Shown: piece by piece, positions 16,727-63,077 of the stretch
Position numbering within the stretch: position 1 is the stretch's first letter
How the letters are laid out: every line of letters starts with the position of its first letter
Assembly (NCBI GenBank): GCA_965205015.1
Contig: OZ242029.1
Coordinates: 2,784,001-2,848,000, forward strand
DNA length: 64,000 nucleotides
From: Candidatus Poribacteria bacterium
Lineage (GTDB): Bacteria > Poribacteria > WGA-4E > WGA-3G
Direction of reading: 5' to 3'
Notes under the pieces: generated by a model
The model's database searches: none
What the model was told of the DNA's origin: nothing
What the model saw: the letters and a program-made list of their open reading frames with translations, nothing else
Program-made: the position numbers and the translations under genes

Positions 16727-16730
16727 TTAT

Positions 16731-18305: not shown

Positions 18306-18308
18306 TAG

Positions 18309-18393: not shown

Positions 18394-18401
18394 TTCACTA
18401 C

Positions 18402-18475
18402 GCGCCTGTAGCTCAGTGGATTAGAGCATCTGACTACGGATCAGAAGGCCAGGGGTTCGAATCCTCTCAGGCGCT
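18402..18475 (+). tRNA. tRNA-Arg(ACG)
   Basis: GCGCCTG/CAGGCGC acceptor, loop CTACGGA. Confidence 0.95.
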
Positions 18476-18497
18476 TCAAGGGACCTTCGCTGAAAAT

Positions 18498-18953: not shown

Positions 18954-18979
18954 CAATTATAGAAATAAGTGGGCATCTT

Positions 18980-19006
18980 GTAGGGGCGGGTCTCGTGCCT
19001 GCTTAC
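18980..19006. repeat. GTAG-type REP palindrome
   Basis: gtaggggcgggtctcgtgcctgcttac; relatives at 19498-19524, 25889-25914, 31112-31138, 39850-39876 and 4555-4577. Confidence 0.7.
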
Positions 19007-19022
19007 TACTGATACCCAATAA

Positions 19023-19107
19023 GGAGAGATGCAGGAGTGGTTGAACTGGACAGTCTCGAAAACTGTTGTGGCGCAAGTCACCGTGGGTTCGAATCCCACT
19101 CTCTCCG
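19023..19107 (+). tRNA. tRNA-Ser(CGA)
   Basis: GGAGAGA/TCTCTCC acceptor, loop CTCGAAA, long variable arm. Confidence 0.95.
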
Positions 19108-19215
19108 TTTTTCATCTTTTTCGGCGTCGAGTTGTAAAGCGTAAGCGGCTCAAGCATCGTAGCGGTTGCGTGTTGTGTGAATTCCGCAAGTTGCTCTTTA
19201 ACTAACAACCATTAC

Positions 19216-19288
19216 GGGGCAGTAGCTCAGTTGGGAGAGTGCATCCCTCGCACGGATGAGGTCACGGGTTCAAATCCCGTCTGCTCCA
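19216..19288 (+). tRNA. tRNA-Ala(CGC)
   Basis: GGGGCAG/CTGCTCC acceptor with G3:U70; loop CTCGCAC. Confidence 0.93.
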
Positions 19289-19387
19289 TATGAAACTTCG
19301 ACCTGAGAATTAGGTCGAAATTTATTTTTAAACCAGATTGCCCATCTCAGACGCGCGCGGCGTCATGAGATGTCCTAAAAATTTTAC

Positions 19388-19479
19388 GGAGAGATGCAGG
19401 AGTTGGTTGAACTGGCATGACTGGAAATCATGTGTGCTGTTTTGCAGTACCGTGGGTTCGAATCCCACTCTCTCCGCCA
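19388..19479 (+). tRNA. tRNA-Ser(GGA)
   Basis: Loop CTGGAAA, long variable arm, encoded CCA. Confidence 0.95.
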
Positions 19480-19544
19480 CTTTTGACGCAATTTGCTGTA
19501 GAGGCGAGGTCACCTCGCCCCTACTGTTGAAATAATTAACGCCT

Positions 19545-19815
19545 TGGCTATGCTAGGTGGGGAGGTAGCGGTGCCCTGTATCTGCAATCCGCTAAAGCAG
19601 AACTGAATCCCCGGTATGCGGCCTGTTTTTGTGGGGACTGTCCCACGCACGTGGTGTTGAGGGTTGGGTCTTGAGCAACGGGCGCTTATTGAACCCCGTC
19701 AGGTCCGGAAGGAAGCAGCGGTAGATGAGTTGCTCGTGTGACGCAAGGGTGCCTGACCTGAGCTAACGACGCGGGCAACGCTTGGAGAAGCTTGTCAACC
19801 CTGGGTGCATAGTCA
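19545..19815 (+). ncRNA. ffs: Large bacterial SRP RNA (Alu-domain type)
   Basis: GGGGAGGTAGCGGTGCCCTGTA..TGCAATCCGC 5' domain; helix 8 TCAGGTCCGGAAGGAAGCAGC; ends pair (tggctatgc/gcatagtca); lies upstream of dnaX. Confidence 0.93.
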
Positions 19816-38010: not shown

Positions 38011-41000
38011 ATGATTATCGGAGGTCTCGTCATCAGGGTAATCAAACAAATCATAAAAATTCTGGTTCTGACTATTTGCTTGTGTGTGCTACCACATCCG
38101 AGTGGGATAGCCCAAAACCTCCCTAACGACGAAGCCACAGTTCTTGAATTTCCCACTTTTTCCGTCCTCCAGAAAACAGAGTCCGTTGAGTTGAAATCAG
38201 GAGAACAAGCATTCACGGTGAGGTATCCACCGATTCTGCCAAACAGCGAGCGGGTAACAGAAGCGGATGGGAAGGTGCTCGTGCGAGGTATCGACTATCA
38301 GATCGATTTCTATTTAGGCAAAATCACTGTAGGGGAAACCGGTCTTGTGCCTGCCCAAACGGATCTTAAGATAACCTACCGAACATTGCCCTTCGCGATT
38401 AAACAGGTCTATAAACGCGACCTTTACGGAACAGCGGACAGCGATCAGCGGTCAGCGGTCAGCGGTCAGCAAGAGAGTCGTCAGCAGTCAGAAACCGTCG
38501 ATGGTCAGCAAAGAGATTTTCTTACTGAAGATTTCCAACAGCCGACAACCGACAGTCAATTAGAAGTATCCGGCAGTCAGACATTCGGTATCTCGGTTGG
38601 CAGTGGACGGGGTGTGTCGCCGAATCAAGAACTCCGCGTCAATGTTGAGGGGAAAGCCTCTGAAAATATCACTGTCTTGGCACTGCTATCCGATCAGGAT
38701 CTGCCCATCCAACCCGAAGGCACAACCGAAAATATTCAAGACATCGATCAGAAATTGATTCGTATTGCGCATCCGAACATGAGGGGAACCTTAGGGGATT
38801 TTGAAGGCTCGCTCGGTGCATCGGAGTTTATTTTTTTTCCACGCGCATTGGAAGGGGTACAGGTTGAAGGCGATTTCAAGTGGGTGGACTTTCACTTCAT
38901 TCCAACTGCTATTCCGAAGGGTCAGTCTACGAGTTTAGTGCTTCGCGGTGAAGAAGGACGTAGTGAATATCGGCTCACAGTTGATGGGCGATACGTCATT
39001 GTGAAAGCGGGCAGTGAAATCGTCTGGCTGAACGGTGAAAGGATGCGGCGCGGCGAAAACAACGATTATATTATCCGTGAATATGGGGATCCAATTGTCG
39101 AGTTTAACAGCAAACATCTCATAACGAGCAACGATGTGATTCGGATCGATTTTGAATATATCCCGGAAGATCGGGCGTACCAACAGAATCTTTACGGATT
39201 CAGCAGCGTCTTCACACTGCCGGGTGAGCGTTTAACACTTGGGGCATCCTACGCCGTTGAAGCAGATCTCAGTCAACCCGAACAGACGCTCATCAAGTTT
39301 GAAGATGCGGAACTGGAGGCTCTTCGCCAAAACATCCTTAATCCGAAGGAAGATGAATCACCGCTCGTACCACCACAAAAGCATACTGTATGGGGGCTGG
39401 AGAGTCGTCTGAACATTACAGAACAAGCGTGGATTCAAGGCGAACTCGCCTATAGTAATCTTGATAAAAACACCTATTCCACTGTCGATCGGAAAGAGGT
39501 GAGTCAGGCATGGAAATTAATCGGTTACGCCGACTGGGACTTTGCGACATGGACCGACCAACTACGTCCTAAATTGACCACAAACCTTGACATACGCTCG
39601 ATGGACGCTGACTTCGTGCCGGTCGGTGCTTCAAGCGGCAACCGGACCCGTTCGCGTTACGAAACGCAATACGCCAAAGAGGGTTTTGATGATGCGTTCC
39701 TACTCGACGCTGCAAGCAGCCCACGAGGTTCCCAAGACGAGAGAACCATGAATTTCGACATCCGAATGATGCCGACAGATTGGTTAGCGGTTGACGCGGG
39801 GGTCGGTAGAAGCGAAGAGAGAGCCCCAGAGAGTCGTCAGTTACCAGTTGTAGGGGCGGGGTTACCCCGCCCTTACGGAGGAGATCTCGCTCAATCAGAT
39901 CCCTCTTTAACCGACACCCGACACCTGACAACTGATAACGATTCAACCATCCGCAACAATTTCAACTGGGGCGTCAACTTCAATCGACGTTCAGGCATGG
40001 GGCAGGTAAGTCGAACCTTCACACCTGTAGGCGGGCACTCCGGTTCCGGACTGCCTATAAGCACACCAGAGAGGAATCCGATAGGAGGGGAAGAAATACC
40101 CAAGCAAAAACACTCCGATTCCCGACAAAGCACATCTGCAGGATCGCGATTCCTGAAAAAGTTGCCGAATCTTCGCTGGGATGACTATCGTAGCAGTTCC
40201 CGGACGGAGGGTGAAGATTCAACAAGGACACAATCGCTACAGAAATCACGTCAAGAGGGAAATCTGTCGTATCCGCTCGGTCCGTTCAGAATTTTGGGAA
40301 CATTCGGGCGAGTGGCGTCGAACGAAGCGCGGAATGCGACGCTCAATCGAAAGCGGAACCGTGCAACCGGACGTATTGATCTTGCTGAATTCAAATGGGC
40401 ATCTTTGAACACCAGCTATGAGCTTGAGGAGGCTTTTGCAAAAGAACCCTTGCTCACTGTTGATGACGAGCCTATCGGTTTGTCGGATTGGCAGCGGAAC
40501 ACCACCGCACGGACTTGGAAGGTAGGTATCCTTTCACAGCAACAATCCTTTCTCAGCGGCGGGGTGAATCTGACGGCAAACATTGCGCGCCGAATGTTGA
40601 AAGCACACACCGATCTCGGGGCAAATACAACCACGCAACTCGCCGATATCAACCTCCAACTCACACCCCTCAGCCGGGCGATTGATATAGAAATCGCTTA
40701 TGAATTAGATAAAAAACTGACGAGTCAACGCCGCGAGGTCTATACCGACATCCATCCCCACACCGGCATTCTGCTCCAACCCGGTGAAGGATACTACGTA
40801 AAACTGGACGATCTACACTACGTAGAGGATCCAGAAGAAGGCACCTATATCAAGATCTATCAAAATGTGGGGGATAAACCGACAACAGCGGTAGATGCGG
40901 AATTCCGGGTCCGTTTTCAACCCCGACAGTTTTTCGCACGACGTGCCAGAGCCAGGCAACAGCAGCAACGCGACTCGATGTTGAAACGTGATAGTTTACG

Positions 41001-41922
41001 CCCGAATAGCCATCAGCAGTCAGGCGTCAGCGGTCAGCAAAAGAACCTCTTAACTGACGGTTTCCGACAGCCGACAGCCGACAGCCGGTTAGAGTGGTTT
41101 CTCAAGGCACTCAGAGGTCAAACCCGGTTATGGTTGACCGAAGAACAGGAGGTCGAGGACGCGGTATCGCTCTATCTGCTCCAAAGTCTACAAGGCTCAG
41201 AAACGCTTTTTGGGCGTTTGAATCAGCACCATCGATTTGAATTTTCGCCATCACCAGCGTTCAGTTTCGAGGTCAACCTTCGTGCTGGGGAGACGCTCAA
41301 TCGGCGGATTAATAACCAAGAACGCCACAGACGACATCGGACGTATGATGTAGGTCTCTCCGTGAACCCTACGCAACGCATGTCCTTCGGTGCGAACTGG
41401 GAACGACGCCGAGAAACTGAGAAATACAGTCAATTCCAAATTGAGGAGCTTACACAGGAAACCGAGACGATACCGAACAGGGGAGCCCTTCCCTCAACGC
41501 CTATCTCAGACCTGCGCCAATTTGAAGAGACGACTGAATTAAGCCTCCGGTATGAACTCAGCAGTTCCGTGCGGTGGAGCGGTATCGGAGGGTATAAACG
41601 GACGACTGACGAAGAGCGTCTCGACGAGGAGCCGGAAGCCAGAACGCGGACCTTCTTTTATGAAAACCGCGTCACGTATAGTCTCATCGGCAAGGGACGC
41701 CTCGATGTGAACTATAAACTCGGTTACGGCGAGAGTAAGGGGGGGATCCCCTTTGCGCAGTACACTTTCTACGAAGGCATTAGCCACGAAGTCCGCACAA
41801 CCGCGGATTACAGATTACGAAAGTTCACCGATCTCCTGTTTCGGCTCAATTATCGGTTGCTCTCCACAAAACAGCGGAAACCCGAGCACCGTCTGGAGAT
41901 GACGGTCAGTGCGGAACTTTAA
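38011..41922 (+). CDS. Large secreted/outer-membrane protein of unknown function
   Basis: Signal peptide; RG.DY.IDF..G.I and GSE.VWLNG...RGENNDY motifs; amphipathic beta-strand-rich C-terminus. Confidence 0.7.
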   Translation: MIIGGLVIRVIKQIIKILVLTICLCVLPHPSGIAQNLPNDEATVLEFPTFSVLQKTESVELKSGEQAFTVRYPPILPNSERVTEADGKVLVRGIDYQIDFYLGKITVGETGLVPAQTDLKITYRTLPFAIKQVYKRDLYGTADSDQRSAVSGQQESRQQSETVDGQQRDFLTEDFQQPTTDSQLEVSGSQTFGISVGSGRGVSPNQELRVNVEGKASENITVLALLSDQDLPIQPEGTTENIQDIDQKLIRIAHPNMRGTLGDFEGSLGASEFIFFPRALEGVQVEGDFKWVDFHFIPTAIPKGQSTSLVLRGEEGRSEYRLTVDGRYVIVKAGSEIVWLNGERMRRGENNDYIIREYGDPIVEFNSKHLITSNDVIRIDFEYIPEDRAYQQNLYGFSSVFTLPGERLTLGASYAVEADLSQPEQTLIKFEDAELEALRQNILNPKEDESPLVPPQKHTVWGLESRLNITEQAWIQGELAYSNLDKNTYSTVDRKEVSQAWKLIGYADWDFATWTDQLRPKLTTNLDIRSMDADFVPVGASSGNRTRSRYETQYAKEGFDDAFLLDAASSPRGSQDERTMNFDIRMMPTDWLAVDAGVGRSEERAPESRQLPVVGAGLPRPYGGDLAQSDPSLTDTRHLTTDNDSTIRNNFNWGVNFNRRSGMGQVSRTFTPVGGHSGSGLPISTPERNPIGGEEIPKQKHSDSRQSTSAGSRFLKKLPNLRWDDYRSSSRTEGEDSTRTQSLQKSRQEGNLSYPLGPFRILGTFGRVASNEARNATLNRKRNRATGRIDLAEFKWASLNTSYELEEAFAKEPLLTVDDEPIGLSDWQRNTTARTWKVGILSQQQSFLSGGVNLTANIARRMLKAHTDLGANTTTQLADINLQLTPLSRAIDIEIAYELDKKLTSQRREVYTDIHPHTGILLQPGEGYYVKLDDLHYVEDPEEGTYIKIYQNVGDKPTTAVDAEFRVRFQPRQFFARRARARQQQQRDSMLKRDSLRPNSHQQSGVSGQQKNLLTDGFRQPTADSRLEWFLKALRGQTRLWLTEEQEVEDAVSLYLLQSLQGSETLFGRLNQHHRFEFSPSPAFSFEVNLRAGETLNRRINNQERHRRHRTYDVGLSVNPTQRMSFGANWERRRETEKYSQFQIEELTQETETIPNRGALPSTPISDLRQFEETTELSLRYELSSSVRWSGIGGYKRTTDEERLDEEPEARTRTFFYENRVTYSLIGKGRLDVNYKLGYGESKGGIPFAQYTFYEGISHEVRTTADYRLRKFTDLLFRLNYRLLSTKQRKPEHRLEMTVSAEL

Positions 41923-47520: not shown

Positions 47521-48852
47521 TTATCTCAATGTAGCGTCTATAGAGATTCTCGCGAGGAAAGAATTGACTTTCCCTTCTCCACTGAACGAATTACCGGTGG
47601 CACCTAACTTAAAGCGCGTGCCTTCATCAAAACGGTGCGTGATCCTTCCGCCCTTACCGGGTACAATCCCTGATGCTGCGGTGAGTATAACCTGAGGCAT
47701 GCCGTCTGTTGAGAATTCGCTGTCGCTTGCAAACAGGATGAACGCACCGGCAGCCTCGGCACTCCCCATCCAGAGATCAATCGTGAGCATACCACCATCT
47801 TTAAACGCCGTCGCATCAATCTCAACAACGGTGTAATCTTGAGTGCCTGCTGTCGGTGTTCGGAAAATATTCAAGATATCCTGTGAAGGTTCTTCATCGT
47901 TGAGCACGACGCTTTTTGCCTGTGTGGAAAGAAACCTCGGTGTGTATTCCGATTGATCTGCCTTCGGTGCAAATCCATCACCCTTACGCGGGGTCATAGA
48001 TTTACCAACTTGTGTCCGCACATTCGGTTTTGATGCAAGATCCAGGACAATAGGAGTGTCAATAAGTTCCACCGTCATCTCCGATGGGGCGGCAAAATCG
48101 TAGGGCTGTTGGAAACGTGTTAAGTACTGACTGCTTGCTCCAAATGCCATTAAAACGAGGACGAGGGTTGAGGTAGCGAGTGCCCACGGCACGAACGGCT
48201 TACCACTGGGGGGTGTGGTGGGTTGGATGCGGGAAATCTCTTGCATGATTTTCTCGGTGAGATTCGCCCGAATCTGAAAGCCTTCCAGTGCTTCTCGGAT
48301 CATCGGTTCTGCCTTCTTTAAGCGGAGTCGCGCACGACGAAGCCGACTCTTAACAGTGCTCGCCGATACCCCCAAAAAACGGCTGATCTCTTCACACGTC
48401 ATCTCTCCAAAATAGTGGAGTGTGACGACGGTGCGTTCACTTTCCTGCAACCGGGCGAGCAATCTTTGGACGATGCCGCGCTGCGCCTCTACCGCAGCTT
48501 TTTCCTGCTCCTCGGCAATGTATTGGGAATACGTCACTCCTTCTATTAGTTCGATGTCCGTATCTTCCAACGATTGCGTCGGCATCCGTTTTTTTCTCAG
48601 CCACGCTTGGCATTGACGTGCGGCGATTCTATAAAGCCATCCTGCAAAGCGACTCGGATCCTTCAACGTTTCCAGTTTCTTGTAGACTCGCAGAAAAGTG
48701 TCCTGTGTAATCTCTTCCGCGACGTGGAAATCGCCAACTTTCCGCCATGCGAGCGCGTGGACTGGCTTTTGGTATTTTTTCACCAACTTCGCAAAGGCGT
48801 TTTCATCGCCTGTGAGACTGCGTTGAATTAGTTCTACATCGTCGTTCTTCAT
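47521..48852 (-). CDS. ECF sigma factor with TM helix and C-terminal domain shared with the SelN-like proteins (443 aa)
   Basis: Paralog of the 41938-44880 N-terminus; C-terminus SQDILNIFRTP...DYTVVEID.TAF..GG...FKLGATG...NSFLARIS. Confidence 0.9.
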   Translation of the reverse strand: MKNDDVELIQRSLTGDENAFAKLVKKYQKPVHALAWRKVGDFHVAEEITQDTFLRVYKKLETLKDPSRFAGWLYRIAARQCQAWLRKKRMPTQSLEDTDIELIEGVTYSQYIAEEQEKAAVEAQRGIVQRLLARLQESERTVVTLHYFGEMTCEEISRFLGVSASTVKSRLRRARLRLKKAEPMIREALEGFQIRANLTEKIMQEISRIQPTTPPSGKPFVPWALATSTLVLVLMAFGASSQYLTRFQQPYDFAAPSEMTVELIDTPIVLDLASKPNVRTQVGKSMTPRKGDGFAPKADQSEYTPRFLSTQAKSVVLNDEEPSQDILNIFRTPTAGTQDYTVVEIDATAFKDGGMLTIDLWMGSAEAAGAFILFASDSEFSTDGMPQVILTAASGIVPGKGGRITHRFDEGTRFKLGATGNSFSGEGKVNSFLARISIDATLR

Positions 48853-48960
48853 CTGTCCCCTCCAAAGAACTAAATTTGGAGAACCTTCAAGAATGATAAC
48901 GAGGCTGACAGGTTGGACGAAAATCCGTGGACATCCATCCAACCTGCTTATATCTTTGAA

Positions 48961-50946
48961 TCACTGGGCATCATAAATGAACCAGTTACCTTCCACTTTT
49001 CGCATCTTAACAGATACCTCCGAGGGATCTGCCATTGGCACTCTCAACCTGAAGTGGAATTCATCACCCACATACTCGCTGCCTAAGATCTCCATCTGAC
49101 GCAATATTTGACGCATCCGAGTACGCACATCCTCTGGCGCATCCTCAAAATCAACTTCAAATGTATGTCGGGCATCCCCTATAAGCATCGGATGTATTGT
49201 CTCTGCATCAAGGTTCTTAAATGCTTCCACGAAAGCGTTCATCACATCTTCCGCGGATTGATTTAAGTGCGCTGATGACACTTCTTTCCCATCCAATGCC
49301 TGATTCGGTTCAACAGAGATTTTCGCCACGAAGGCATTGACCTGCCCTTTCTTACTATGCCAATCACCGGTCGCCCCTAATTTAAAGTGATGCCCCCGGT
49401 CGAAAGGATAGATGATTTTCTTGGATTTACCCGGTGAGACTCCCCATGCCGAAGCAACCGCGTTCCGAGGTGCACCTTCTGTTGGGGGTTCGCTTTCGCC
49501 ATCAAACAGGTGGAACGAACCTGCAGCCTCTGCATGTCCGACGGAGATATTGATCGTAAGCACACCTCCATTTTCAAACGCCGTGGTATCAATTTTAATG
49601 ATAGTGTAATCTTGATAACCCGGTTCTGGTGTCCGAAAGATATTAAGGATCTCCTGTGAGGTTCGAACATCATTGAGTACAACCTTCAAACGACTCAATG
49701 CGGTATCCGAGTTGAGGGGCTCTGGTTCTGAAGTATCTTCACCGAATCCGGGAAGTTTTCCGTCTAAAGCTTCCTTGAGAAACGTTAGGTAACGTTGCCC
49801 CATGTTTGCTCCGAGAAGATCATTGACGGGCTGCCTGCCCATCAATTCAAGATCTGTTGAAAGAATCAAGGAATCTGACGGCGAACGCTTCTTCCACCCT
49901 TTCATGATTGCCTGTGCCAAAGGGGACTTTTTGTCGAATGGCTTGAATCCATGCTGGTGTCTCAATGCCATGAAAACTTTCTTATTAGCGGTGCGCTCCA
50001 ATTCGACATTCGACACCCAGGTATTGATAAAATTGTCATTCAAGAACTCAATGACTCGGTTGTTGGAGAGGACAACTGCCCTCAGGGCTTTACCGCTCCC
50101 TCAGCACGATTCATCCATCAATGGTCCATCTATAGAGATAGCGTGAATCGGCTTCTGTTGTGCGTGTGCCATCTCCAATACCTCATCTGGCGGCACCCAA
50201 TTAATTTGCTGTGATTTGTAGAAATTCGTTATCAGGGCACGTTCAGCGGTTTCTTGGGTAATCGCTTCTGCGAATTCGACGTTCTTCAGTAAATCTGGCC
50301 TTCCGGCACGAAGTTCCATTTGCGAACAGAAACCTGCATCTGTAATAGAGCTTCCGGGTCCGTATTTACTCCAGTTAACATCAAAGTTTACTGTGCCTTC
50401 AGGGACATACATCTTAAAGAAAGCGACCTTTTTTTGAATTCGATCAATTACAAGATGACCGGTAAACAGCGATGGAGTAAACCACCCATCCTTTAGTTTA
50501 AACTCCGCGTGAATCCGAAACACGATGTCGGCAAATGTATCGTTGTAAGCGCGCAGGCATGCCCACAAACCATAGGAATCGCCCGAGTTGATATGCATCT
50601 TCAAATTCGGATTGGGATGAAGTTGCCGTAGCAATTCTAATGCCCCGGTATTTTCAATCTGCCAGAGTTCGCCGATCGAAACCGCTTTGTCTGGAAGAAA
50701 GGCGCGGAAAACCGAGGCAGGATGCTGCTTCTCTGGTTCAGCAACGCGTAGATTTGCCAATGCCTCCCAATCTACATGGAAATTGGACAAGGTACTCACG
50801 ATTGGGGCGATGAAGCCTTTGACGGACATTTCAGATGCACCATCAAGATTAAGTGTAATTTTTTTATTCTGTGTCAAGTCCTCATTAGCGTTTAATTGTC
50901 CGCTTATCACAATCAGAGTGAGAAATCCAATCATTAGGGTTTTCAT
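48961..50946 (-). CDS. Selenoprotein N-like protein, copy 1 (Sec at TGA 50101-50103; 661 aa; signal peptide; extra C-terminal domain)
   Basis: ORFs 50101-51060 and 48961-50043 are in frame across a single TGA: GPLMDESC-U-GSGKALRAVVLSNNRVIEFLNDNFINTW; FRIHAEF, NFDVNW, QMEL and YLTFLKEAL motifs as in animal SELENON. Confidence 0.88.
50068..50083 (-). promoter_or_regulatory. Candidate bacterial SECIS hairpin
   Basis: GAGGGC-AGTT-GTCCTC starting 17 nt after the UGA. Confidence 0.6.
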
Positions 50947-51144
50947 TTTTACTTCTCCTTGTAATAGAATAACATTACTACGTAAACAACGTCTATCCCA
51001 AAAGTTGTTGCTCGCGTAGATTCTCATCTTTATGGTTTGGAGCGTTGAGGTCGAGCGCACACCTTAATCCTTAAAATTATCCAAACTTTAGTAATTTTAA
51101 TAACGGCAATTTTATCTTTCAGTCGGTTTGCCACGCGCATTCCT

Positions 51145-51954
51145 TTAGAGCCCTCTTAGGAGGGATACCCACCGTTCCCATACGGCTTTAGTGGCAGTTT
51201 TCTGTGCTTCGTTGGCATCTTCTGTCATACCGCGCATCAGGAAAGCGTGACCGACCCCTTCATAGATGACGGGTTCGTAGGTGATGTTTGCGGCATCCGC
51301 CGCGGCTTTAGTGGCATCAATTGTGGCATTGATACGATTGTCGTTCTCGGCGTAGAAGCCATACACCGGTGCTGATATTTTGGGGATATCTTCCGTTGAT
51401 GGGGCAGGACCGTAAAACACAAAACTAGCGGCTATTGTGGTGGAATGAACAGCGTAACTGAACGTTTGACCACCTCCCCAGCAGAATCCGGAGACTGCAA
51501 CCTTTTCATTGGTTTCAGGTAGATTTCGGACATATTTTTCGATGGCATCCAGGTCGGATGTGACTTGGGAGGGTGGGAGTTCGCTGATAGCCCATGGTAC
51601 GTCGTCCCTTGAGTCGAAACTTTCTGTGCCGCCACCGTCAGGTCCCATGCCGGAAAGCATATCTGGACAAATTGCGACAAACCCTTCGGCAGCGAGCGTG
51701 TCTGCGACGAGTCGTATCCAATTGGTGAGTCCGCGACCCTGGTGGATGACGATGATAGCCGTTGCGGGTTCTTTCACCGTTGGATAAACGATAAACGCAT
51801 TGACGATACGCGCATCGGAGGTCGTAACTTTCACCCTTTCGCTGTGTCGCGGGGATACGTCAAGTTGAGTTTTTATACTATCAGCCTCTGCATCGGCAAT
51901 GAACAATAAACCGGTGACAATGATACCTAACATAAGCGTGTGGGCTATCTGCAT
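51145..51954 (-). CDS. Secreted dienelactone hydrolase family protein
   Basis: GFCWGG nucleophile motif, FYG, END, YEGVGHAF; signal peptide. Confidence 0.9.
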   Translation of the reverse strand: MQIAHTLMLGIIVTGLLFIADAEADSIKTQLDVSPRHSERVKVTTSDARIVNAFIVYPTVKEPATAIIVIHQGRGLTNWIRLVADTLAAEGFVAICPDMLSGMGPDGGGTESFDSRDDVPWAISELPPSQVTSDLDAIEKYVRNLPETNEKVAVSGFCWGGGQTFSYAVHSTTIAASFVFYGPAPSTEDIPKISAPVYGFYAENDNRINATIDATKAAADAANITYEPVIYEGVGHAFLMRGMTEDANEAQKTATKAVWERWVSLLRGL

Positions 51955-52208
51955 AGTTTTTTCCTTATTTTTCCTTTGTACTGTGAATAATGGACTCTAC
52001 TACCTTTTAGATATTCTTTAGGACTTACGCGATAATTTAATATCTCAGCATTAAGCCCATTCCCCGATTTATCAATAATCGTCTGATCTGTAACCTCATC
52101 AAACGTCAGGTAAAAAACGAGTCCCTCATCCAAACTCGCGTTGGCGGAAATCGTCCCCAGGAGAATAAGGGGTCCCCAAAAAGCTGCACCGATAAATCCT
52201 CGTATCAT
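51945..52208 (-). pseudogene. Truncated LamG-domain gene
   Basis: First ~57 aa match the 54208 and 56264 paralogs (LDEGLVFYLTFD...IIDKSGNGL.AEIL), then similarity stops. Confidence 0.8.
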
Positions 52209-52280
52209 GTTTTCTTTTCCTCCTATAGAGTCATTTGAGTTTTCTAAAGCTTGTCACACAAATCTCGTGTCGATATATAA

Positions 52281-52308
52281 TGACGCGGAGGATTGGAAAA
52301 ACGGTTGC
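52281..52308 (-). promoter_or_regulatory. ECF-type promoter motif GCAAC-N18-CGTCA
   Basis: Preceded by TTTTGCAGAATTA, as are the copies at 44934, 55101 and 57155. Confidence 0.65.
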
Positions 52309-52401
52309 TTAATTCTGCAAAAAATAGAGAAAATATGATACGGGAAATGGATTTGGTTTGTTCATAGACTAAATCTGAATATGAAGCGCGTTGGATCCGC
52401 G

Positions 52402-54063
52402 TTAATTTTCGTCCTGCCCTTTCGACGCAGACTCCACGGATATTGTCGCGAGAAAAGCATTGGTACCTCCCTTCTTACTGAACCCATCACCGGTAGCTCC
52501 CAACCGAAAGGATTGACCTCGCTCAAAGATATGCGTGATGCTCTCTGTTCCACCGGATGGAATACTCCACGCTGAAGCGAGGGCATTCTGAGGTACCCCC
52601 TCTGTTGGCAGTTTCCTGTTGCCAGCAAACAAATCAAACGAACCGGCAGCTTCAGCGTACCCGACGGAAACATCAATCGTAAGCACACCCCCATTTTCAA
52701 ACGCTGTCGCATCAATTTCAACGACAGTATAATCCCGAAAGCCCGCCTCTGGTGTCCGAAAAATATTCAGTACCTCCTGTGAGGTCCGAACATCGTTGAG
52801 TACAACTTTCAAGTTACTCAATACAGTATCTGAGTTGAGGGATTCTGGTTCTGAAGTATCTTCACCCAATCCTGGCTGTTTTCCCGCTAAGGATTCTTGG
52901 AGAAACGTTAAGTAATGCCTTGTTGTGTTTCCTCCAACGAGATGAAGTTTATTGGCGGGTTGCCTACCCATCACTTCAAACTGTGGCGATATGATCAAAC
53001 AATCCACTGGAGAATGTTTTTTCCAGCCTTTCATGATTGCCTGTGCTAAGGCATGGGTTGTATCAAATGTTTTGGATTCTCGCTCGCGTCTCTTCGCAAT
53101 CGGGTCTCGTAAACTCGGTACCCGTCCCAATTCGCAATTCGGCACCCATGTGTTGACGAAATTTTCGTTCAAGTATTTTATGATCTGATCGTCGGAGAGG
53201 ACAACTGCCCTCAAGGCTTTGCCACTCCCTCAGCACGATTCATCAGCAAGCGGTCCCATTATTGAGAGGACGTGAACCGGCTTCTCTTGTGCTGGTGCCA
53301 TTTTCAACGCATCTTCCAAAGAAACCCAGTTAATTTCCTGCGATTTGTAGAAACGCAATATCAGTTTACGTTCAGCCGCTTCTTGAGTGATGGATTCTAT
53401 AAACTCGGTGTCTGATACAATTTCTTGGATCTCAGCATGAAGTTCTATTTTTGGACAAAAACCGACATCTATAGTGTTAGTGCTGTTTCGTCCAACATCA
53501 AAATTCAGTATGCCTTCAGGGACGTACATCTTGAAGGCAGTAACCTTTTCCTTAATTCGATCAATAACAAGATACCCAGCGAATTGAGACGGAGTAAATC
53601 GACCATCTCTTAGGATGAATTCTGCATGGATACGGAACACAATTTCAGCAAATCTATCATTGTACGCGCGCAAAGATGCCCACAAGCCGCGAGAATCCCC
53701 TGAATTTATGCTAATATCCAGATTTGGCTTCGGATGAAGTTGTCGCAATAATTCCAGCGCACTTCCTTCCTCGATCTGCCAGAGATCCCCAACAGAAACC
53801 GCTTCGGATGGCAGAAAAGCCCGAAAAACCGAGGTAGGATACCGCTTCTCGGGTTCAGCAACCCGTAGATTCGCCAATTCATCCCACTCCACATGAAAGT
53901 TATATTGCGTGTATTCAATCGGGGCAATGACGCCTTTCACTAACACTGCAGATGTACCATCAAGGTTAAGTGTGATTTTTTTCTTCTCTGTCAAGTCTTC
54001 ATTGGCGTTTAATTGTCCATTTATCATCACCAGAATGAGAAGCCCAATCGTTAAAGTTTTCAT
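52402..54063 (-). CDS. Selenoprotein N-like protein, copy 2 (Sec at TGA 53230-53232; 553 aa; signal peptide)
   Basis: In frame across TGA: GPLADESC-U-GSGKALRAVVLSDDQIIKYLNENFVNTW; FRIHAEF, FTPSQFAG, YLTFLQESL. Confidence 0.88.
53197..53212 (-). promoter_or_regulatory. Candidate bacterial SECIS hairpin
   Basis: GAGGGC-AGTT-GTCCTC starting 17 nt after the UGA. Confidence 0.6.
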
Positions 54064-54207
54064 TTTACAAATTCCTTAAAATTAACTACGGAAAATACGA
54101 TGTCTAAGTATCCATCTTACAAGAATTCGTTGTTCGCGTAGTATTACTATCAATATACAATAACTCGGGTTATATAAAGTAAAGCATTCTCACTTGCCAG
54201 CTACTCG

Positions 54208-55029
54208 CTAAGGGGTAACCGTCCTCTTTTTGACATCCGCCCAAGTCGTTGCGACTTTATCACTTGGTGAAACAGCGAGGAAATCCCCTACCATTGCCTG
54301 TTTAATTTCCCCATCGCTGAGTGCACGTTGCCAGACAGCGGTTTCATCAATAGAGCCGTTAGCGAATGCGTACTGCAATCTATTTTTTGCGCATCCGATC
54401 CGGAGTTTCGCGTTATTACCCCCAAAGAAATTGAATGTCTTTTTTTCCGAACCTATGACTTTACCGTCTAAATAAATCTTCACGGTTTTTCCGTCGTAGC
54501 TGCCAGCAACGTGGTACCATTTTCGGACACCCATTTTGTGTGAAACTGCGAATTCATGCCGGTCGGTAATCCCGCGTTTATCTCGCGACCCTAAAAACAA
54601 TACAATCTCTGGTCCGTCACCGATATCGGAGCTACCTATACCGTAGGTTCCAGACCAACCGACACCCGAATGGCACCCTTTATCAAGCCAATGCAACATC
54701 CTTTTACCTTTCCATGTTTCTTGATAGTAGATCCATGTCATCATTGTTATTTCGTTTGTAATTTTCAGTTTCTCTTGAGAAGGGATACTGACGCAATCCT
54801 GACCATCATCTGTGATATGAATGGCATTCCCGTATTTGCCCTTCACAATTTGGGTATTCTCGTGGAGTTCTGCGTCAAGACCATTCTTGGATTTGTCAAC
54901 AATTGTCTGATCTTTAACGTTATCAAACGTCAGATAAAAAACCAATTCCTCATCAAGTCCTGCGTTGGTAGAAATTGTCATTAACAGCATGACAGCACCC
55001 GAAAAAGCTGCAATAAATAACCGCGTCAC
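54208..55029 (-). CDS. Secreted LamG/concanavalin-like domain protein
   Basis: WYHVAGSYDG..KIYLDG, GSIDE.AVW.RALS; C-terminal VSPSDKVATTWADVK. Confidence 0.9.
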   Translation of the reverse strand: MTRLFIAAFSGAVMLLMTISTNAGLDEELVFYLTFDNVKDQTIVDKSKNGLDAELHENTQIVKGKYGNAIHITDDGQDCVSIPSQEKLKITNEITMMTWIYYQETWKGKRMLHWLDKGCHSGVGWSGTYGIGSSDIGDGPEIVLFLGSRDKRGITDRHEFAVSHKMGVRKWYHVAGSYDGKTVKIYLDGKVIGSEKKTFNFFGGNNAKLRIGCAKNRLQYAFANGSIDETAVWQRALSDGEIKQAMVGDFLAVSPSDKVATTWADVKKRTVTP

Positions 55030-55100
55030 GTTTTCTTTCCTCCTGTAGCGTCTGTTAAGTTTTCCAAAATTTGTTCCATAGACATGGTTTTGATATATAA

Positions 55101-55128
55101 TGACGCGGGTAACAGGCAGAACGGTTGC
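55101..55128 (-). promoter_or_regulatory. ECF-type promoter motif GCAAC-N18-CGTCA
   Basis: Same boxes as the other copies, different spacer. Confidence 0.65.
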
Positions 55129-55198
55129 TTAATTCTGCAAAAAAAGAACAAAATGTGATACACAGCGCAGCAAACGCGCATAACACAGCAGTTTCATA

Positions 55199-56221
55199 CT
55201 ATTTCTCTTTTACTTTTCCCCATATTGTGCTGAGCAGTTGGGGTTGCGGTGAGACAGGCAACACATATACAGGGTCGAACCAATCCCCTCCAAAATTCGC
55301 CTTAAAAACCCGTCCAATATGTGTCAACTGTGTCCGAGTGTCACTGGGGATATCAAGTTTGAAAATGTGTAGACGTCCCTTAATTTTCTGTGTATAAAGG
55401 ACCTCTTCCCCATCTGGCGACAGCACTGGATATTGTGCTCTGGGCCCGGCTTCATTGAGAAGTTCTCGGAGATCCGTCCCGTCGCGGTTTACAATATAGA
55501 TTGTTTCTTTATCCAGCCATACGGGTGGGAAACGATCCCCTGGCAAAAGGCGCGGGAACGGGTTCTGATTCCAAGAAAAAGCGAGTTTGCTCCCCGTAGT
55601 CGACCAAAACGGTTGATTTTGCCAAGCCGTTGCCGTCCTCGGTAGGAGGTGTTTTTGTCTTCGTGTGTGGAGGTCAATTAGGGCAATTCGGCAGGTATCT
55701 CCAATATAAGACACATACGCTATTTTCGTCCCATCGGGTGACCACGTCGGATATCTGCCCTCCACGACACGCGCCTCTTTTTGTTCACCCAAGGTTGCAA
55801 CGTGGATATGGAACCTGACACCGTCCCAATTCAGGTGTGTGTAAGCGATCTGTTTGCCATCGGGTGACCACGTCGGAGAATCCCTATAAGATTTTCTTTT
55901 TCTTGTGAACACGGGACGGACATTGGAGCCGCTGGGATCCATCAGATATAAGTCCCGGATGCCGCCCTCGCGATCGGAAACGAAAAGAATCTGTTCACCA
56001 GTCGGGGACCAGACAGGGTTTAGGTCATTTGCGCGATGTTGCGTTAAGTTTATCTGTTCACTCCCGTCCGGATTCATCATGTAGACCTCGTAATTGCCGT
56101 CTCGTGAAGAGGTGAACAGAATTTTGGCGGTTGTGGGTGCTGTTGCGAAAACGAAGTTAACATTTACGTCCAGTATCAACACGTTCAATATAGCAAAAAC
56201 GAACAACCGTATTGTTTTCAT
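55199..56221 (-). CDS. Secreted TolB-like (PD40) beta-propeller protein
   Basis: F.S.RDGN.EVY.MN.DGS, P.WSPDG repeats; C-terminal PVSPQPQLLSTIWGKVK. Confidence 0.88.
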   Translation of the reverse strand: MKTIRLFVFAILNVLILDVNVNFVFATAPTTAKILFTSSRDGNYEVYMMNPDGSEQINLTQHRANDLNPVWSPTGEQILFVSDREGGIRDLYLMDPSGSNVRPVFTRKRKSYRDSPTWSPDGKQIAYTHLNWDGVRFHIHVATLGEQKEARVVEGRYPTWSPDGTKIAYVSYIGDTCRIALIDLHTRRQKHLLPRTATAWQNQPFWSTTGSKLAFSWNQNPFPRLLPGDRFPPVWLDKETIYIVNRDGTDLRELLNEAGPRAQYPVLSPDGEEVLYTQKIKGRLHIFKLDIPSDTRTQLTHIGRVFKANFGGDWFDPVYVLPVSPQPQLLSTIWGKVKEK

Positions 56222-56263
56222 TTTATGTGCCTTTATGAGGGATTCTGATTTTGTAGGGAGCCG

Positions 56264-57082
56264 TTAGGGAGCGACCGCTCTTCTTTTCATATCCGCCCAA
56301 GTCGTCGCGGCTTTATCGCTCGGCGAAATAGCGAGCATGTTTCCTGTCATCGCTTGTTTGATTTCATCATCACTGAGGGCGCGTTGCCACACCGCAGCTT
56401 CATCAATAGAGCCGTTCGTGAATGTAAGATGGGGTACGTCTTTTGCACATCCGATCCGAACGTCTGCTTCGTTGTCCCCAAAGAAATCGAATTTTTTCTT
56501 TTCTTTTGCTATGACTTTACCATCTACATAGATTTTCATGGTTTCGCCATCGTAACTTCCGACAACATGATGCCATTTTTTTTCGTCCATTTCATGCGGA
56601 GTTCTGAACTCCTGTCGATCCCACTTCCCTTCTATGTGTGATCCCAAAAACAAAAAGATTTCTGGTCCGTTACCGGCATCAGTACCAGCAATACCATAAC
56701 AGTGCGCCCAACCAACCGGAACAACGAAATGACAGTCTTTTTCCAGCCAATGCGCCTTCTCGTTGTTCCATGTTTCTGCAGAATAAATCCATGCCATCAT
56801 TGTTATCTCACCGATAACTTTCAATTTCTCTTGGGCAGGGATATTGACGCAATCTCCGCTTTGACCTTTAAGGCGAATTGCATCTCCATATTTACCCTTG
56901 ACAATATCAACACGCTCAAGTATTTCTGCGTCAAGACCGTTGCCAGATTCATCAATAATCGTCTGATTTTTAACGTTATCAAACGTCAGATAAAAAACGA
57001 GGTCTTCATCCAAACCCGCGTTGGCAAAGGTCACCAACAACGTAACGACACTCAAAAAAGCAGCAATAAATGCCCGTAACAT
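56264..57082 (-). CDS. Secreted LamG/concanavalin-like domain protein
   Basis: Paralog of 54208-55029; GGAGG before ATG 57082. Confidence 0.9.
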   Translation of the reverse strand: MLRAFIAAFLSVVTLLVTFANAGLDEDLVFYLTFDNVKNQTIIDESGNGLDAEILERVDIVKGKYGDAIRLKGQSGDCVNIPAQEKLKVIGEITMMAWIYSAETWNNEKAHWLEKDCHFVVPVGWAHCYGIAGTDAGNGPEIFLFLGSHIEGKWDRQEFRTPHEMDEKKWHHVVGSYDGETMKIYVDGKVIAKEKKKFDFFGDNEADVRIGCAKDVPHLTFTNGSIDEAAVWQRALSDDEIKQAMTGNMLAISPSDKAATTWADMKRRAVAP

Positions 57083-57154
57083 GTTTTCTTTTCCTCCTAT
57101 AGCGTCATTTGAATCTTCCAAAATTTGTCACACAAATCTCGTGTCGATATATAA

Positions 57155-57182
57155 TGACGCGGAGGATCGGAAAAACGGTTGC
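57155..57182 (-). promoter_or_regulatory. ECF-type promoter motif GCAAC-N18-CGTCA
   Basis: Near-identical to the 52281 copy. Confidence 0.65.
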
Positions 57183-57339
57183 CTAATTCTGCAAAAAATT
57201 AGCAAATTTAGACATGGCTGTTGATAATTAGGGGTAAGGACGATCCATTGTCTTATGAATGAATTTCGATTTTTGAGTTTGCTTTACAGAAACGTAGATA
57301 GATAGGCGCGCGTTGACAAATAGGTTAAAATGATATGGG

Positions 57340-58875
57340 TTATTTTTCAAATGGGGGGACGACAGAGACACGCGCCAAAAAAGCATTGGAAGTGCTCTTT
57401 TGGTTGTTTGCCCTTGTAGCGACCAACTTAAAATGCTGTTTGCCCTCCCTGAAGTGGTGAAAGATATGTCCTGTATTGCCGGGCAAAACGTTCCATGTCC
57501 CAGTCAGTGCTTTATCTGTCGTTTTGTTTGTCAGAATTTTCGCATCGGCATCAAACAATTCAAACGTTCCTGCTGCCGCCCCTGCTCCGACCTGTATCTC
57601 AATGTGGAGCACGCCGCGTTCAAAAGGGGTGGTATCAATCTCCACGACCGTGTAATCTGGCGTATCGGTGTCGGATGTGTTGAAAACATGCAAAATCTCC
57701 ATCAACTCCGTCCCTAAGCTGATCGGGTTTCGATCTAATTTTGAGGCGTTCCCTACACGAGCGCGTTTTCCTTCAAACGCATCCACGGAATGCTGCAGCA
57801 CCGATAGGTATGCTTGCGCGTGATTCCTGTAAGGCAGTGCCATCTCCGGTTGATGCATAATGACTTCCGCGTCGGGGGTCAGTGCCAGAATATCCACAGA
57901 GTCGGTGTAATGGTGTTTCATCTTTTGAGCGACGAGACTCACCCCTTCGCCTTCCGCGCCACCTATCAGTTCTGGCAATTCCCGGAGGAGCACCCACGTA
58001 TTGACGAACTTTTCGTTGAGCGTTTTTATGACTTCAGGATTGGAGAGCGGACCCGCCCTCAAATTTTTGCCATTCGCTCAGCACGATTCATCATCTAAAC
58101 ACCCCCAGACAAGGATGGCATGGATCGGCCGATGGGTCGCTTTTGCCTGTGCGACTGCCTCATCAATCGGCAGCCAGTTGATCTCCGCGAACTTGTAGAA
58201 CTTCAGTTCCAATGCACGATGTGCTTCTTCCGTTGTGATAGTAGCGTCCCACGTGATCTCGTTTTGGTCGGTCTCATCTATAGCGAGGAGTTCCATACGC
58301 GGCACGAAAACCATATCCGCTCCCCCAGAGGCGTTGAGGTCAACGTTCGTGTTGCGCGCCGGCAAGGCTAATGAAAACGCGCGAATCGTTCCGCTTTCTA
58401 CATTCACCACTACTTTCCCTGCAAATTGTGATGGAATAAACCTGGCTTCGGACTCCCACTCATCGTTTTTTTCTTGCCACTCCTGATGAGCAGCGGAGTT
58501 CAACGCGAATTCTGCATGAATTCGGAAAGCAATTTCTGCGTAGTCTGAGGCACGTGCCCGTAAGCAGGCAAAGGCACCTTCCTCACCGTACCCTAAATCA
58601 GCCGTTGCTCCCGGATGAAACTGACGCAGGAAGGAAACAACACTGTTCGCATCAAGTTTATAGACATCCCCTACCGTCACAGCAGATGGTGGCAGGAACG
58701 CAGTGAAAGCATCAGTCCGGTATTCCTTAACAGGTTGGTTTGGTGACAGATCGAAAAGTTCAACGTGTTCTGGCGATGCCTTGTGCATACGAAAGGTAGA
58801 ATCCGCAATCGGTTCCCAATGTGCATGCACCTGTAGACGTGTTGAACTATTTAGGACATTACAAAGGTTTATCAC
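57340..58875 (-). CDS. Selenoprotein N-like protein, copy 3 (Sec at TGA 58078-58080; 511 aa; no obvious signal peptide)
   Basis: In frame across TGA: IHAILVWGCLDDESC-U-ANGKNLRAGPLSNPEVIKTLNEKFVNTWVLLRELPEL; GGAGG before GTG 58875. Confidence 0.88.
58043..58060 (-). promoter_or_regulatory. Candidate bacterial SECIS hairpin
   Basis: GAGGGCG-GGTC-CGCTCTC starting 17 nt after the UGA. Confidence 0.65.
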
Positions 58876-61643: not shown

Positions 61644-62342
61644 ATGTTTCAGAGATTTCAAGTAATACTCGGTTTAACCCTCTGTTTCCTACTGCTCCAA
61701 CCGTTTGCAAGCTTTGCCGTAGAGGAATTCAAGGTTTCAAAAAACGGAAAGGGTGAGCAGATCTGGTTTGAGGCGGAAGTCTTTGACGAAAGGGATTCCA
61801 AGGATGTCTATAAATTAGGTAAAGGTGAAAAGGCTGTGGATCCTGCCGATGGTGCCTTCGGGGATATTATCACAAATGCAGGAGCTGGGAAAAAAGGGTG
61901 GATACTCTATAGGTTCGACATCAGTCGTGCAGGCGGAAAAGCCGGAGACTGGCGGTTCATCGGGCGCGTCATTAATCCGAGCAACCATTCAGACTGGTTG
62001 TGGGTCTTAGGTGACGATGGTGATAAAATTCCAGATGCCGAACCTGCCTTTGTCCGTCCCAATCACATTATCTTTGAAGAAAATATTCCGGAATGGACAT
62101 GGAAGAAGACGGGAGATTTTGGACAGGATGCTGGCACGATTAATGAATTACAGGACGGTGAAAACGTCATGATGATATGGACACGGCAAAGTTCGCTTCA
62201 GGTCCAATATGATGTCTTTTGCTGGTCCAGCGACTTGGAATATCAACCTACGGATGAAGACTACGAGAAAGCGGACAAAAAAACTCTACCGGTGCATCCC
62301 GATGGATTGCTAACCACAACGTGGAGTCGGCTCAAACAGTAA
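61644..62342 (+). CDS. Secreted hypothetical protein (tandem paralog 1)
   Basis: AGGAG RBS; signal peptide; IWFEAE.FD; ends PVHPDGLLTTTWSRLKQ. Confidence 0.85.
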   Translation: MFQRFQVILGLTLCFLLLQPFASFAVEEFKVSKNGKGEQIWFEAEVFDERDSKDVYKLGKGEKAVDPADGAFGDIITNAGAGKKGWILYRFDISRAGGKAGDWRFIGRVINPSNHSDWLWVLGDDGDKIPDAEPAFVRPNHIIFEENIPEWTWKKTGDFGQDAGTINELQDGENVMMIWTRQSSLQVQYDVFCWSSDLEYQPTDEDYEKADKKTLPVHPDGLLTTTWSRLKQ

Positions 62343-62378
62343 CTGCTTTAAAATAGCACAAAAGTGCGATGAAGGAGA

Positions 62379-63077
62379 ATGATTATGCTTCGGAAATGTC
62401 AGTTAACCTTCGGCTTAGTTTTCTGTTTCCTGTTGGTACAACCGTTTACAGGCTTTGCTGTAGAGGAATTTAGAATTTCTCAATATGGCAGTGGCGAACA
62501 GATCTGGTTTGAGGCGGAAGCCTTTGACGAAAGGGATTCTGCGGATGTTTATAAATTAGGCAAGGGTGAAGGGGCACTTGATCCCACGGAAGGTGCCTTC
62601 GATGATATCATCACGAATGCTGGTGGACAAGGTTGGATACTCTACAGGTTTGACATCAGTGCTGCTGATGGAAAAGCCGGGGATTGGCGATTTATCGTGC
62701 GTGCCATTAATCCGAGCAACCACTCCGATTGGTTATGGGTTTTGGGCGACGACGGTGATGAAATTCCAACCGCTGCCCCCGCTTTTGTGCGTCCGGATCA
62801 CATTATCCTTGAAGAAAACGTTCCCGAATGGACCTGGGTGCGGACAGGTGATTTCGGACAGGATGGTGGCACGGTCAACAAGTTACAGGACGGTGAAAAT
62901 GTCATGATGATATGGACGCGACAAAGCTCGAACCAGGTTCAGCTCGACGTTATCTGCTGGTCCAGCGACTTGGAATATGAACCCACAGATGAAGACTATG
63001 AGAATGCCAGCAGCGGGGTTACTCCCGTCCACCCCGAAGGGCTACTCACCACAACATGGGCGCGGCTTAAGCAGTAG
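62379..63077 (+). CDS. Secreted hypothetical protein (tandem paralog 2)
   Basis: Highly similar to 61644-62342; ends PVHPEGLLTTTWARLKQ. Confidence 0.85.
   Translation: MIMLRKCQLTFGLVFCFLLVQPFTGFAVEEFRISQYGSGEQIWFEAEAFDERDSADVYKLGKGEGALDPTEGAFDDIITNAGGQGWILYRFDISAADGKAGDWRFIVRAINPSNHSDWLWVLGDDGDEIPTAAPAFVRPDHIILEENVPEWTWVRTGDFGQDGGTVNKLQDGENVMMIWTRQSSNQVQLDVICWSSDLEYEPTDEDYENASSGVTPVHPEGLLTTTWARLKQ

Follow-up and report, generated by a model that had tools for sequence, protein, structure and literature searches.

Three paralogous genes in a 64-kb stretch of a Candidatus Poribacteria genome (contig OZ242029.1; the whole stretch is called the window here) each carry a single in-frame UGA codon, followed at a fixed distance by a small stem-loop. 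We consider it very probable that these hairpins are bacterial selenocysteine insertion sequence (SECIS) elements, lying within the coding sequence (CDS) and directing insertion of selenocysteine (Sec) at the UGA. The hairpin and the UGA are conserved in homologous DNA from 77 further loci, and comparison of these sequences shows that the hairpin is selected at the RNA level.

Three UGA-containing genes and their hairpins

All features of the three genes lie on the minus strand. Each gene consists of two long open reading frames (ORFs) in the same frame, split by a single TGA. The genes, their in-frame UGA codons, and the hairpins, with stem lengths in base pairs (bp) and local minimum free energies (MFE), are as follows.

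48961 to 50946, minus strand: copy 1 gene, 661 codons with one in-frame UGA, the frame being open on both sides of the TGA
48961 to 48963, minus strand: TGA stop codon of copy 1
50101 to 50103, minus strand: in-frame UGA of copy 1, residue 282, motif DESC-U-GSGKALRA
50068 to 50083, minus strand: SECIS-like hairpin of copy 1, GAGGGC / AGUU / GUCCUC, 6 bp, local MFE -8.9 kcal/mol
52402 to 54063, minus strand: copy 2 gene, 553 codons with one in-frame UGA
53230 to 53232, minus strand: in-frame UGA of copy 2, residue 278
53197 to 53212, minus strand: SECIS-like hairpin of copy 2, with the same sequence as in copy 1, local MFE -8.9 kcal/mol
57340 to 58875, minus strand: copy 3 gene, 511 codons, a divergent paralogue (about 38% identical)
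58078 to 58080, minus strand: in-frame UGA of copy 3, residue 266, motif DESC-U-ANGKNLRAGPLS
58043 to 58060, minus strand: SECIS-like hairpin of copy 3, GAGGGCG / GGUC / CGCUCUC, 7 bp, local MFE -10.6 kcal/mol

Around the UGA, copies 1 and 2 share the motif DESC-U-GSGKALRAVVLS, and copy 3 has DESC-U-ANGKNLRAGPLS. A preliminary description of this DNA had reported that a hairpin begins exactly 17 nucleotides (nt) after each of the three UGA codons, had quoted the stem-loop strings of all three copies, and had remarked that pairing is kept although the encoded residues differ (VVLS versus GPLS). Each of these statements is borne out by direct reading of the sequence at all three sites, the full encoded stretches being LRAVVLS and LRAGPLS. 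The string GAGGGCAGTTGTCCTC is present exactly twice in the window (50068-50083 and 53197-53212) and GAGGGCGGGTCCGCTCTC once (58043-58060), and dinucleotide shuffles gave no match to either. Compared with copies 1 and 2, copy 3 has its 3' arm displaced by 2 nt in the downstream direction; thus, pairing is kept by a register shift and not column by column. The copy 3 hairpin belongs to the MFE fold of the surrounding 67 nt.

The window is bacterial and uses the standard genetic code. TGA terminates 8 of its 33 ORFs of at least 250 amino acids, and only three of those eight are sites of this family. Ordinary gene ends and noise aside, the three family sites are the only TGA codons in the window that are flanked by long ORFs on either side.

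Conservation and covariation of the hairpin

Homologous DNA was collected in one contig scan with nine aligned sequences of the N-terminal domain, from which the best 80 of 246 confirmed relatives were kept, giving 77 loci. All of these are from Candidatus Poribacteria genomes or unclassified metagenome-assembled genomes and show 59 to 86% identity in the N-terminal domain. Together with the window, the loci contain 169 sites matching the motif, or 176 with a wider motif, and the codon in question is TGA in 176 of 176, with the frame open on both sides. One, two, three, four, and five copies were found in 21, 27, 21, 5, and 3 loci, respectively, each locus spanning at most 8.8 kb, and one chromosome holds at least nine family copies in its retrieved parts. 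The five-copy loci, L033, L036, and L047, are tandem arrays of UGA-containing genes within 8.8 kb. Regular-expression scans of the loci detected no non-TGA copy of the site, and tblastn searches of all loci with 17 Cys-, Gly-, Trp-type, or other proteins that span the site gave no match of 75% identity or more. When other selenoprotein genes were sought among 164 further candidates in the loci, the convincing ones proved to be only more members of the same family. Subsequent comparisons were based on 163 unique sequences (recoding, codon, and SECIS tests), 137 unique 51-nt elements, and 151 unique 72-nt sequences, 150 of which make up the alignment A5.

A stem-loop within the ORF, directly 3' of the in-frame UGA, is present in the three window copies and in 137 of the 137 unique elements. 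The preliminary description had made its reading depend on the hairpin being kept in TGA-containing homologues; it is kept, with at least five of the six pairs in every one of the 137 elements. All six pairs form in 135 of them and five in the other two (loops of 4 to 6 nt allowed), and the larger set gives the same picture, with six pairs in 161 of 163 sequences and five in two.

In the fixed register of A5, 94.8% of cells are paired, compared with 45 to 83% when the 3' partner is slid along. Neither the covariation score of A5 nor its 12 doubly changed cells were reached by any of 500 shuffles. These 12 cells belong to the pair of columns 30 and 39, which is G-C in 107 sequences, A-U in 12, changed on both sides, and G-U in 7; in the Thr (ACA) variants, a G-U pair has become A-U. 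A further 24 cells that appear unpaired at this position are variants whose 3' arm lies 2 nt on (...GAG CUC UC or CCG CUC UC), as in copy 3, the two registers being possible because CUCUC is repeated. The +2 register alone leaves 83.4% of cells paired, shows no covariation, and is used only by Glu, Pro, and Arg-Val variants. Where the 5' arm reads GAGAGC (Arg codon AGA), GCUCUC stands opposite in 17 of 17 sequences, in either of the two registers. Parsimony on a midpoint-rooted tree of the flanking protein sequence (157 sequences with complete, distinct flanks) assigns at least 13 changes to the G/A state of the 5' arm, a count that gene conversion between paralogues could inflate.

Selection on the RNA and its codons

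The question arises whether such a hairpin might be a functionless by-product of the conserved peptide L-R-A-x-x-L-S and of the common descent of the paralogues. LRAGPLS is also found in the Cys-type homologues, which means that the constraint on the peptide does not depend on the UGA; moreover, the hairpins of copies 1 and 2 are identical, and the folding z-scores given below are unremarkable. Against this, we set a recoding test that left every amino acid unchanged and drew synonymous codons at the frequencies seen in the flanks of each instance (up to 400 codons). All six pairs formed in only 4.0% of the recodings, as against the 161 of 163 sequences observed. The mean MFE of the 24-nt segment is -9.02 kcal/mol, compared with -3.65 kcal/mol (standard deviation, 2.24) for the recodings, and 154 of the 163 sequences outdo 95% of their own recodings.

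The codons themselves tell against a by-product as well. The Arg codon at position +7 from the UGA is AGG in 145 sequences, AGA in 18, and CGN in none, whereas CGN makes up 76% of the Arg codons in the flanks and AGG, the rarest, only 8%. A similar uniformity is seen at Leu +6 (CTG or TTG in 159 of 159), Ala +8 (GCA in 151 of 157), Gly +9 (GGT in 112 of 112), Val +10 (GTC in 114 of 118), and Leu +11 (CTC in 160 of 163). Free variation, with two to six synonyms per codon, is seen at positions -8 to -5 and +13 to +29. Changes in the arms are compensated in all 17 of the cases described above. Synonymous sites in the flanks have reached saturation, and the invariance of the hairpin can therefore not be put down to descent alone. 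A functionless hairpin is therefore disfavored and, in our estimate, very unlikely. The preliminary description had cautioned that the L-R-A codons also constrain the 5' arm; this constraint is real, but it does not explain the hairpin, given AGG or AGA in 163 of 163 sequences, CTC in 160 of 163, and free variation in the neighboring codons.

Synonymous constraint extends upstream of the hairpin, up to and including the codon before the UGA, which is TGC in 163 of 163 sequences (49% of Cys codons in the flanks). Within the spacer, which opens with a Shine-Dalgarno-like GGGAG, Gly +1 is GGG in 139 of 148 sequences (19% in the flanks), Gly +3 is GGC in 129 of 163, and the Lys codon is AAA in 154 of 163. 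The corresponding features of the window are as follows.

50065 to 50106, minus strand: stretch of synonymous constraint in copy 1, from Cys codon -1 to Ser codon +12 (columns 4 to 45 of A5)
50084 to 50106, 53213 to 53235, and 58061 to 58083, minus strand: constrained Cys codon and 17-nt spacer of copies 1, 2, and 3
50091 to 50106, also 53220 to 53235 and 58068 to 58083, minus strand: possible small hairpin H1 around the UGA, UGCUG / AGGGAG / YGGYA

H1 was predicted by RNAalifold on A5, with columns 4 to 8 pairing with columns 15 to 19. Its changes are one-sided only and just 23 of 163 sequences outdo 95% of their own recodings; we regard H1 as a doubtful element.

Agreement with the bacterial SECIS consensus

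According to the legend of Fig. 2 in PMC13188914, the consensus of bacterial SECIS elements comprises a loop of 3 to 9 nt, a stem of 4 to 16 bp, at least one G among the first two loop nucleotides, a UGA-to-loop distance of 16 to 37 nt, and an MFE of at most -7.5 kcal/mol. Folding was limited to nucleotides 15 to 43 downstream of the UGA, as a rough mimic of a ribosome covering the first nucleotides, and gave this hairpin in 163 of 163 sequences. All have loops of 4 to 8 nt and stems of 5 to 8 bp, and 159, including the three window copies, agree with the consensus in all four respects tested; three of the others fall short in energy only and one in both loop and energy. The loop starts 23 nt after the UGA in 153 sequences, 24 nt in nine, and 22 nt in one. 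An MFE of -7.5 kcal/mol or lower was computed for 159 of 163 sequences from the local 28-nt segment and for 162 of 163 from the UGA plus 45 nt.

The loops are AGGU (99 sequences), AGUU (37), AGUUGA (11), GGUC (6), AGGUGA (6), CGUG (3), and one other. A G within the first two loop positions, expected for bacterial elements as the preliminary description had pointed out, was found in 162 of 163 sequences, the exception having the predicted loop CAGGUAUC; the signature of G followed by G or U is likewise kept in 162 of 163. Covariance models of eukaryotic and archaeal 3'-untranslated-region SECIS elements gave no match in Rfam scans of the whole window at gathering scores and of positions 49900 to 58300 at an E value of 10 or less. 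The agreement of 159 of 163 sequences with the consensus and the selection at the RNA level thus support the earlier proposal that these genes use recoding by a bacterial SECIS within the CDS.

The residue inserted at the UGA

A search of 1.84 billion cluster representatives yielded 634 relatives at an E value of 0.001 or less, 150 of which were listed. Among these 50%-identity representatives, 69 of 150 end exactly after the Cys preceding the site and others start at the Leu six codons after it, the signature of gene callers halting at a conserved stop codon. Nine of the matches listed span the site. Six of them have Cys there (DESC-C-GSGK and similar) and the remaining three Trp, Ala, or Phe. 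In P0137, P0143, P0153, and P0158, a Cys is aligned with the UGA of copy 1. The usual grounds for proposing selenocysteine are thus all present, namely a conserved in-frame UGA, Cys in homologues, and a position at the active site of a thioredoxin fold, and the UGA most likely encodes this residue.

If the UGA were a real stop, as gene callers treat it when they split these genes, the downstream half would have a translation start of its own at the CTG or TTG six codons later. GGGAG, which is conserved (GGG in 139 of 148) and lies 10 nt upstream of Leu +6, could then serve as a Shine-Dalgarno sequence. However, CTG is a poor bacterial start codon, and it occupies Leu +6 in 105 of 159 sequences; the skipped G-S-G-K is conserved as protein in homologues without the stop; and a thioredoxin-like domain that is modelled with confidence would be divided at its active site. 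We give this explanation next to no chance.

It is also conceivable that the hairpin stimulates read-through independently of SelB, as in programmed stop-codon read-through, with a near-cognate tRNA such as that for Trp decoding the UGA. Some full-length paralogues do have Trp (P0018 and P0020) or Gly at the site, and both residues, judged from the proteins, would be consistent with single-base changes from TGA. Cys in six of the nine listed spanning representatives, the location of the site at the active-site position of a thioredoxin fold, and a loop signature that a purely mechanical roadblock would not need make such near-cognate decoding extremely unlikely.

Alternatively, the hairpin might be a true SelB-dependent SECIS, with the UGA decoded partly or wholly as Cys by a tRNA(ReC)-like tRNA, so that the mature protein would have Cys-Cys. 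The available part of PMC13582414 describes tRNA(ReC) as reading UGA as Cys with a downstream SECIS and as occurring in several Sec-using phyla, and distant homologues of the present family have Cys-Cys at the site. No such tRNA was found in the window, however, and Poribacteria are not among the phyla reported with tRNA(ReC) in that part of PMC13582414. Furthermore, a Cys codon would give the same product without recoding machinery, yet TGA is kept in 176 of 176 sites. We judge Cys insertion by such a tRNA to be unlikely.

Proposed mechanism and weight of the evidence

For Sec insertion, we propose the following course of events. Once the UGA occupies the A site, roughly the first twelve nucleotides downstream of it would lie inside the ribosome, leaving the hairpin of 6 to 7 bp, 17 nt past the UGA, unobstructed immediately outside the entrance for the mRNA. 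SelB carrying Sec-tRNA(Sec) would bind the small loop of this hairpin (N-G-G/U-N) and deliver selenocysteine where termination would otherwise occur. The product would be a multidomain protein, secreted in the case of copies 1 and 2, in which a central DsbH-like thioredoxin-fold domain would carry vicinal Cys and Sec residues at the usual redox-active position. The use of Sec in this phylum is supported by the accessible parts of the literature: Poribacteria are among nine phyla with Sec-type group 4 hydrogenases (PMC13582414), and the clusters of orthologous groups of SelA and SelB are present in most sponge-symbiont bins (PMC5649159).

Several observations weigh against SECIS function of the hairpin. 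No selA, selB, selC, or selD gene and no tRNA(Sec) was seen within the 64-kb window, and the Rfam scans described above gave no relevant match. Close full-length paralogues from Poribacteria have Gly (13), Trp (2), or Thr (1) at the site and not Cys. Moreover, the homologous DNA all comes from one phylum and one family, and the sequences are therefore related and show double changes at a single base pair only. The synonymous constraint on the Cys codon and the spacer is a feature for which the hairpin alone offers no explanation. Within the window, the 67-nt stretches fold no better than dinucleotide shuffles (z = 0.29, -0.62, and -0.52), and copy 2 has as its 67-nt MFE fold another, longer hairpin that draws on the CUCUC of the 3' arm. 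This alternative, in which the GGGAG after the UGA pairs with CUCUC and an inner GCC/GGC helix forms, has 88.4% of cells paired across the family.

This longer hairpin was rejected as a conserved element: its covariation measures are all at or below those of shuffles, and copy-3-type sequences have mismatches at the pairs of columns 11 and 43 and columns 14 and 40. In copies 1 and 2, the free mRNA may nevertheless adopt it. With a ribosome positioned at the UGA, GGGAG would be covered, and only the hairpin at the 17-nt offset could then form. Taken by itself, the window makes a weak case that the hairpin exceeds chance, because the genes are paralogous, the hairpins of copies 1 and 2 are identical, and the 67-nt folds are unremarkable; the comparative evidence settles that it does.

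Protein fold and family

An AlphaFold2 model of copy 2, computed from a 72-sequence alignment, has three domains and a mean predicted local distance difference test (pLDDT) score of 90.7. Cys277 and Sec278 lie between a strand (residues 263 to 268) and a helix (residues 279 to 286) of a thioredoxin-like domain. The Foldseek matches of the model include DsbH (2ju5), a protein of the Thioredox_DsbH type (7tkv_B), and AGR3 (3ph9), the others being generic beta sandwiches; E values for 2ju5 and 7tkv_B were 5e-4 to 7e-4. The model thus places the UGA-encoded residue at what would be the active-site position of a DsbH-like thioredoxin fold.

At the sequence level, Pfam and NCBIfam (release 20.0) assigned the three read-through proteins to no family at an E value of 0.1 or less, apart from sub-threshold matches to DUF255 (PF03190) for copy 3 and DNA_pol_E_B for copy 2. 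The DUF255 match runs across the Sec site of copy 3 but, at 14.5 bits (E value, 0.036), stays below the gathering score of 27. A sequence profile search of the PDB with A2 gave no match at an E value of 1 or less. Table 1 of PMC13188914 lists 119 prokaryotic selenoprotein families, those with a CU motif being SaoC, SaoL, HgcA, MbdU, and KCU-star; this 2026 list has no entry with the domain, the DESC-U-GSGK motif, or the three-domain architecture found here. The family is likewise not described in the literature that we found on Poribacteria with selenocysteine or selenoproteins, and BSepDB (PMC13326102) and deep-Sep (PMC12013277) may hold it. It appears to be uncatalogued and strongly expanded in Poribacteria.

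It is tempting to combine these findings into a broader picture of an uncatalogued, mostly secreted three-domain selenoprotein family, with vicinal Cys and Sec in its DsbH-like domain, expanded in Poribacteria to up to five Sec-encoding tandem copies per 8.8 kb. All copies would share one near-invariant minimal SECIS along with a conserved 17-nt spacer and preceding codon, perhaps a lineage-specific readout for recoding. As a whole, we hold this picture tentatively and rate its chances as slightly below even. If it is true, sponge-associated Poribacteria would be among the more selenoprotein-rich bacteria.

Members of the family differ in several respects. The N terminus of copy 1 resembles a signal peptide. 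Copy 3, read from its GTG start, has no signal peptide, nor do relatives such as P0172, in contrast to copies 1 and 2. This raises the possibility that the two subfamilies work in different compartments or that the start of copy 3 is mis-set. An extra C-terminal stretch of about 110 residues in copy 1 (approximately 48961-49300, minus strand) is missing from copies 2 and 3 and from most homologues. In the non-UGA full-length paralogues, P0004 to P0021, the preceding Cys is mostly kept, and the N-terminal domain has an insertion of about 30 residues; judged from their sequences, these proteins look like a branch that has lost Sec.

Neighboring genes and other features of the window

Directly downstream of copy 1 lies a gene for a sigma factor of the extracytoplasmic function (ECF) type (47521-48942, minus strand; 473 amino acids) with sigma-70 regions 2 and 4 and a long tail, and the TGA ending copy 1 is in frame with this ORF. 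In the distant Cys-type homologue P0143, an ECF-sigma-like N-terminal half is fused to the domain of the UGA-gene family. The neighboring sigma factor and this fusion hint at a functional link to sigma/anti-sigma signaling.

Genes for Laminin_G_3, PD40, dienelactone hydrolase, and WD40 proteins are located between the three copies. Elsewhere in the window, six tRNA genes (four Ser, one Arg, and one Ala) are clustered at 16639-19812 (plus strand), followed by a large Bacillus-type signal recognition particle RNA (Rfam RF01854, 185.5 bits). An ORF of 1,303 amino acids (38011-41922, plus strand) and two adjacent ORFs of 232 amino acids (61644-63077, plus strand) have no Pfam match at an E value of 0.001 or less.

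Implications

Copies of these genes in databases are halves of about 280 to 400 amino acids, called "hypothetical protein" where the source names them. Because gene callers split the genes at the UGA, the annotation of a large sponge-symbiont protein family is wrong, and the family's dependence on selenium is overlooked. Recognition of the SECIS allows these genes to be annotated correctly and extends the known selenoproteome by a family that combines a thioredoxin fold with a Cys-Sec pair. The findings suggest that sponge-dwelling Poribacteria have a substantial selenium demand. Natural variants of the element, with compensated stems and two registers of the 3' arm, should be useful for studying recognition by SelB outside model organisms. 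The protein family, rather than the SECIS as such, is the more interesting part.

Comparison with known systems

The central domain is similar in structure to DsbH and other Thioredox_DsbH proteins (DUF255, PF03190), a similarity at the fold level only. Its motif is C-U, whereas theirs is CxxC, and the Poribacteria proteins have extra beta-rich domains at both ends. With thioredoxin-fold and CU-motif selenoproteins, the family shares a putative Sec at a redox position, Cys-containing homologues, and a vicinal Cys-Sec pair. It differs from SaoC, SaoL, HgcA, MbdU, and KCU-star in that none of their NCBIfam or Pfam models matches the window proteins at an E value of 0.1 or less.

Compared with the bacterial SECIS consensus (the bSECISearch model of Zhang and Gladyshev, as presented in the available part of PMC13188914), the hairpin has the same location in the CDS 3' of the putative Sec-UGA, and its loop, stem, spacing, and MFE are within range. 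Unlike that model, it is a very small unbulged helix without a conserved lower stem, its sequence is unusually uniform over at least 137 distinct paralogous elements, and the spacer and the codon preceding the UGA are under synonymous constraint as well.

In Escherichia coli fdhF, a minimal stem-loop of 17 nt lies 11 nt from the UGA and contains an essential bulged U17, with G23 and U24 in the apical loop, as far as described in the accessible text of PMC8659212. The hairpin of the Poribacteria genes is also downstream of the UGA and has G and U in its apical loop, with SelB presumably the reader in both systems, but its distance from the UGA is 17 nt instead of 11 nt and it has no bulged U. 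With this spacing and no bulge, it fits the general bacterial model and not the E. coli type. Read in this way, the hairpin is an ordinary, though unusually small and uniform, SECIS element.

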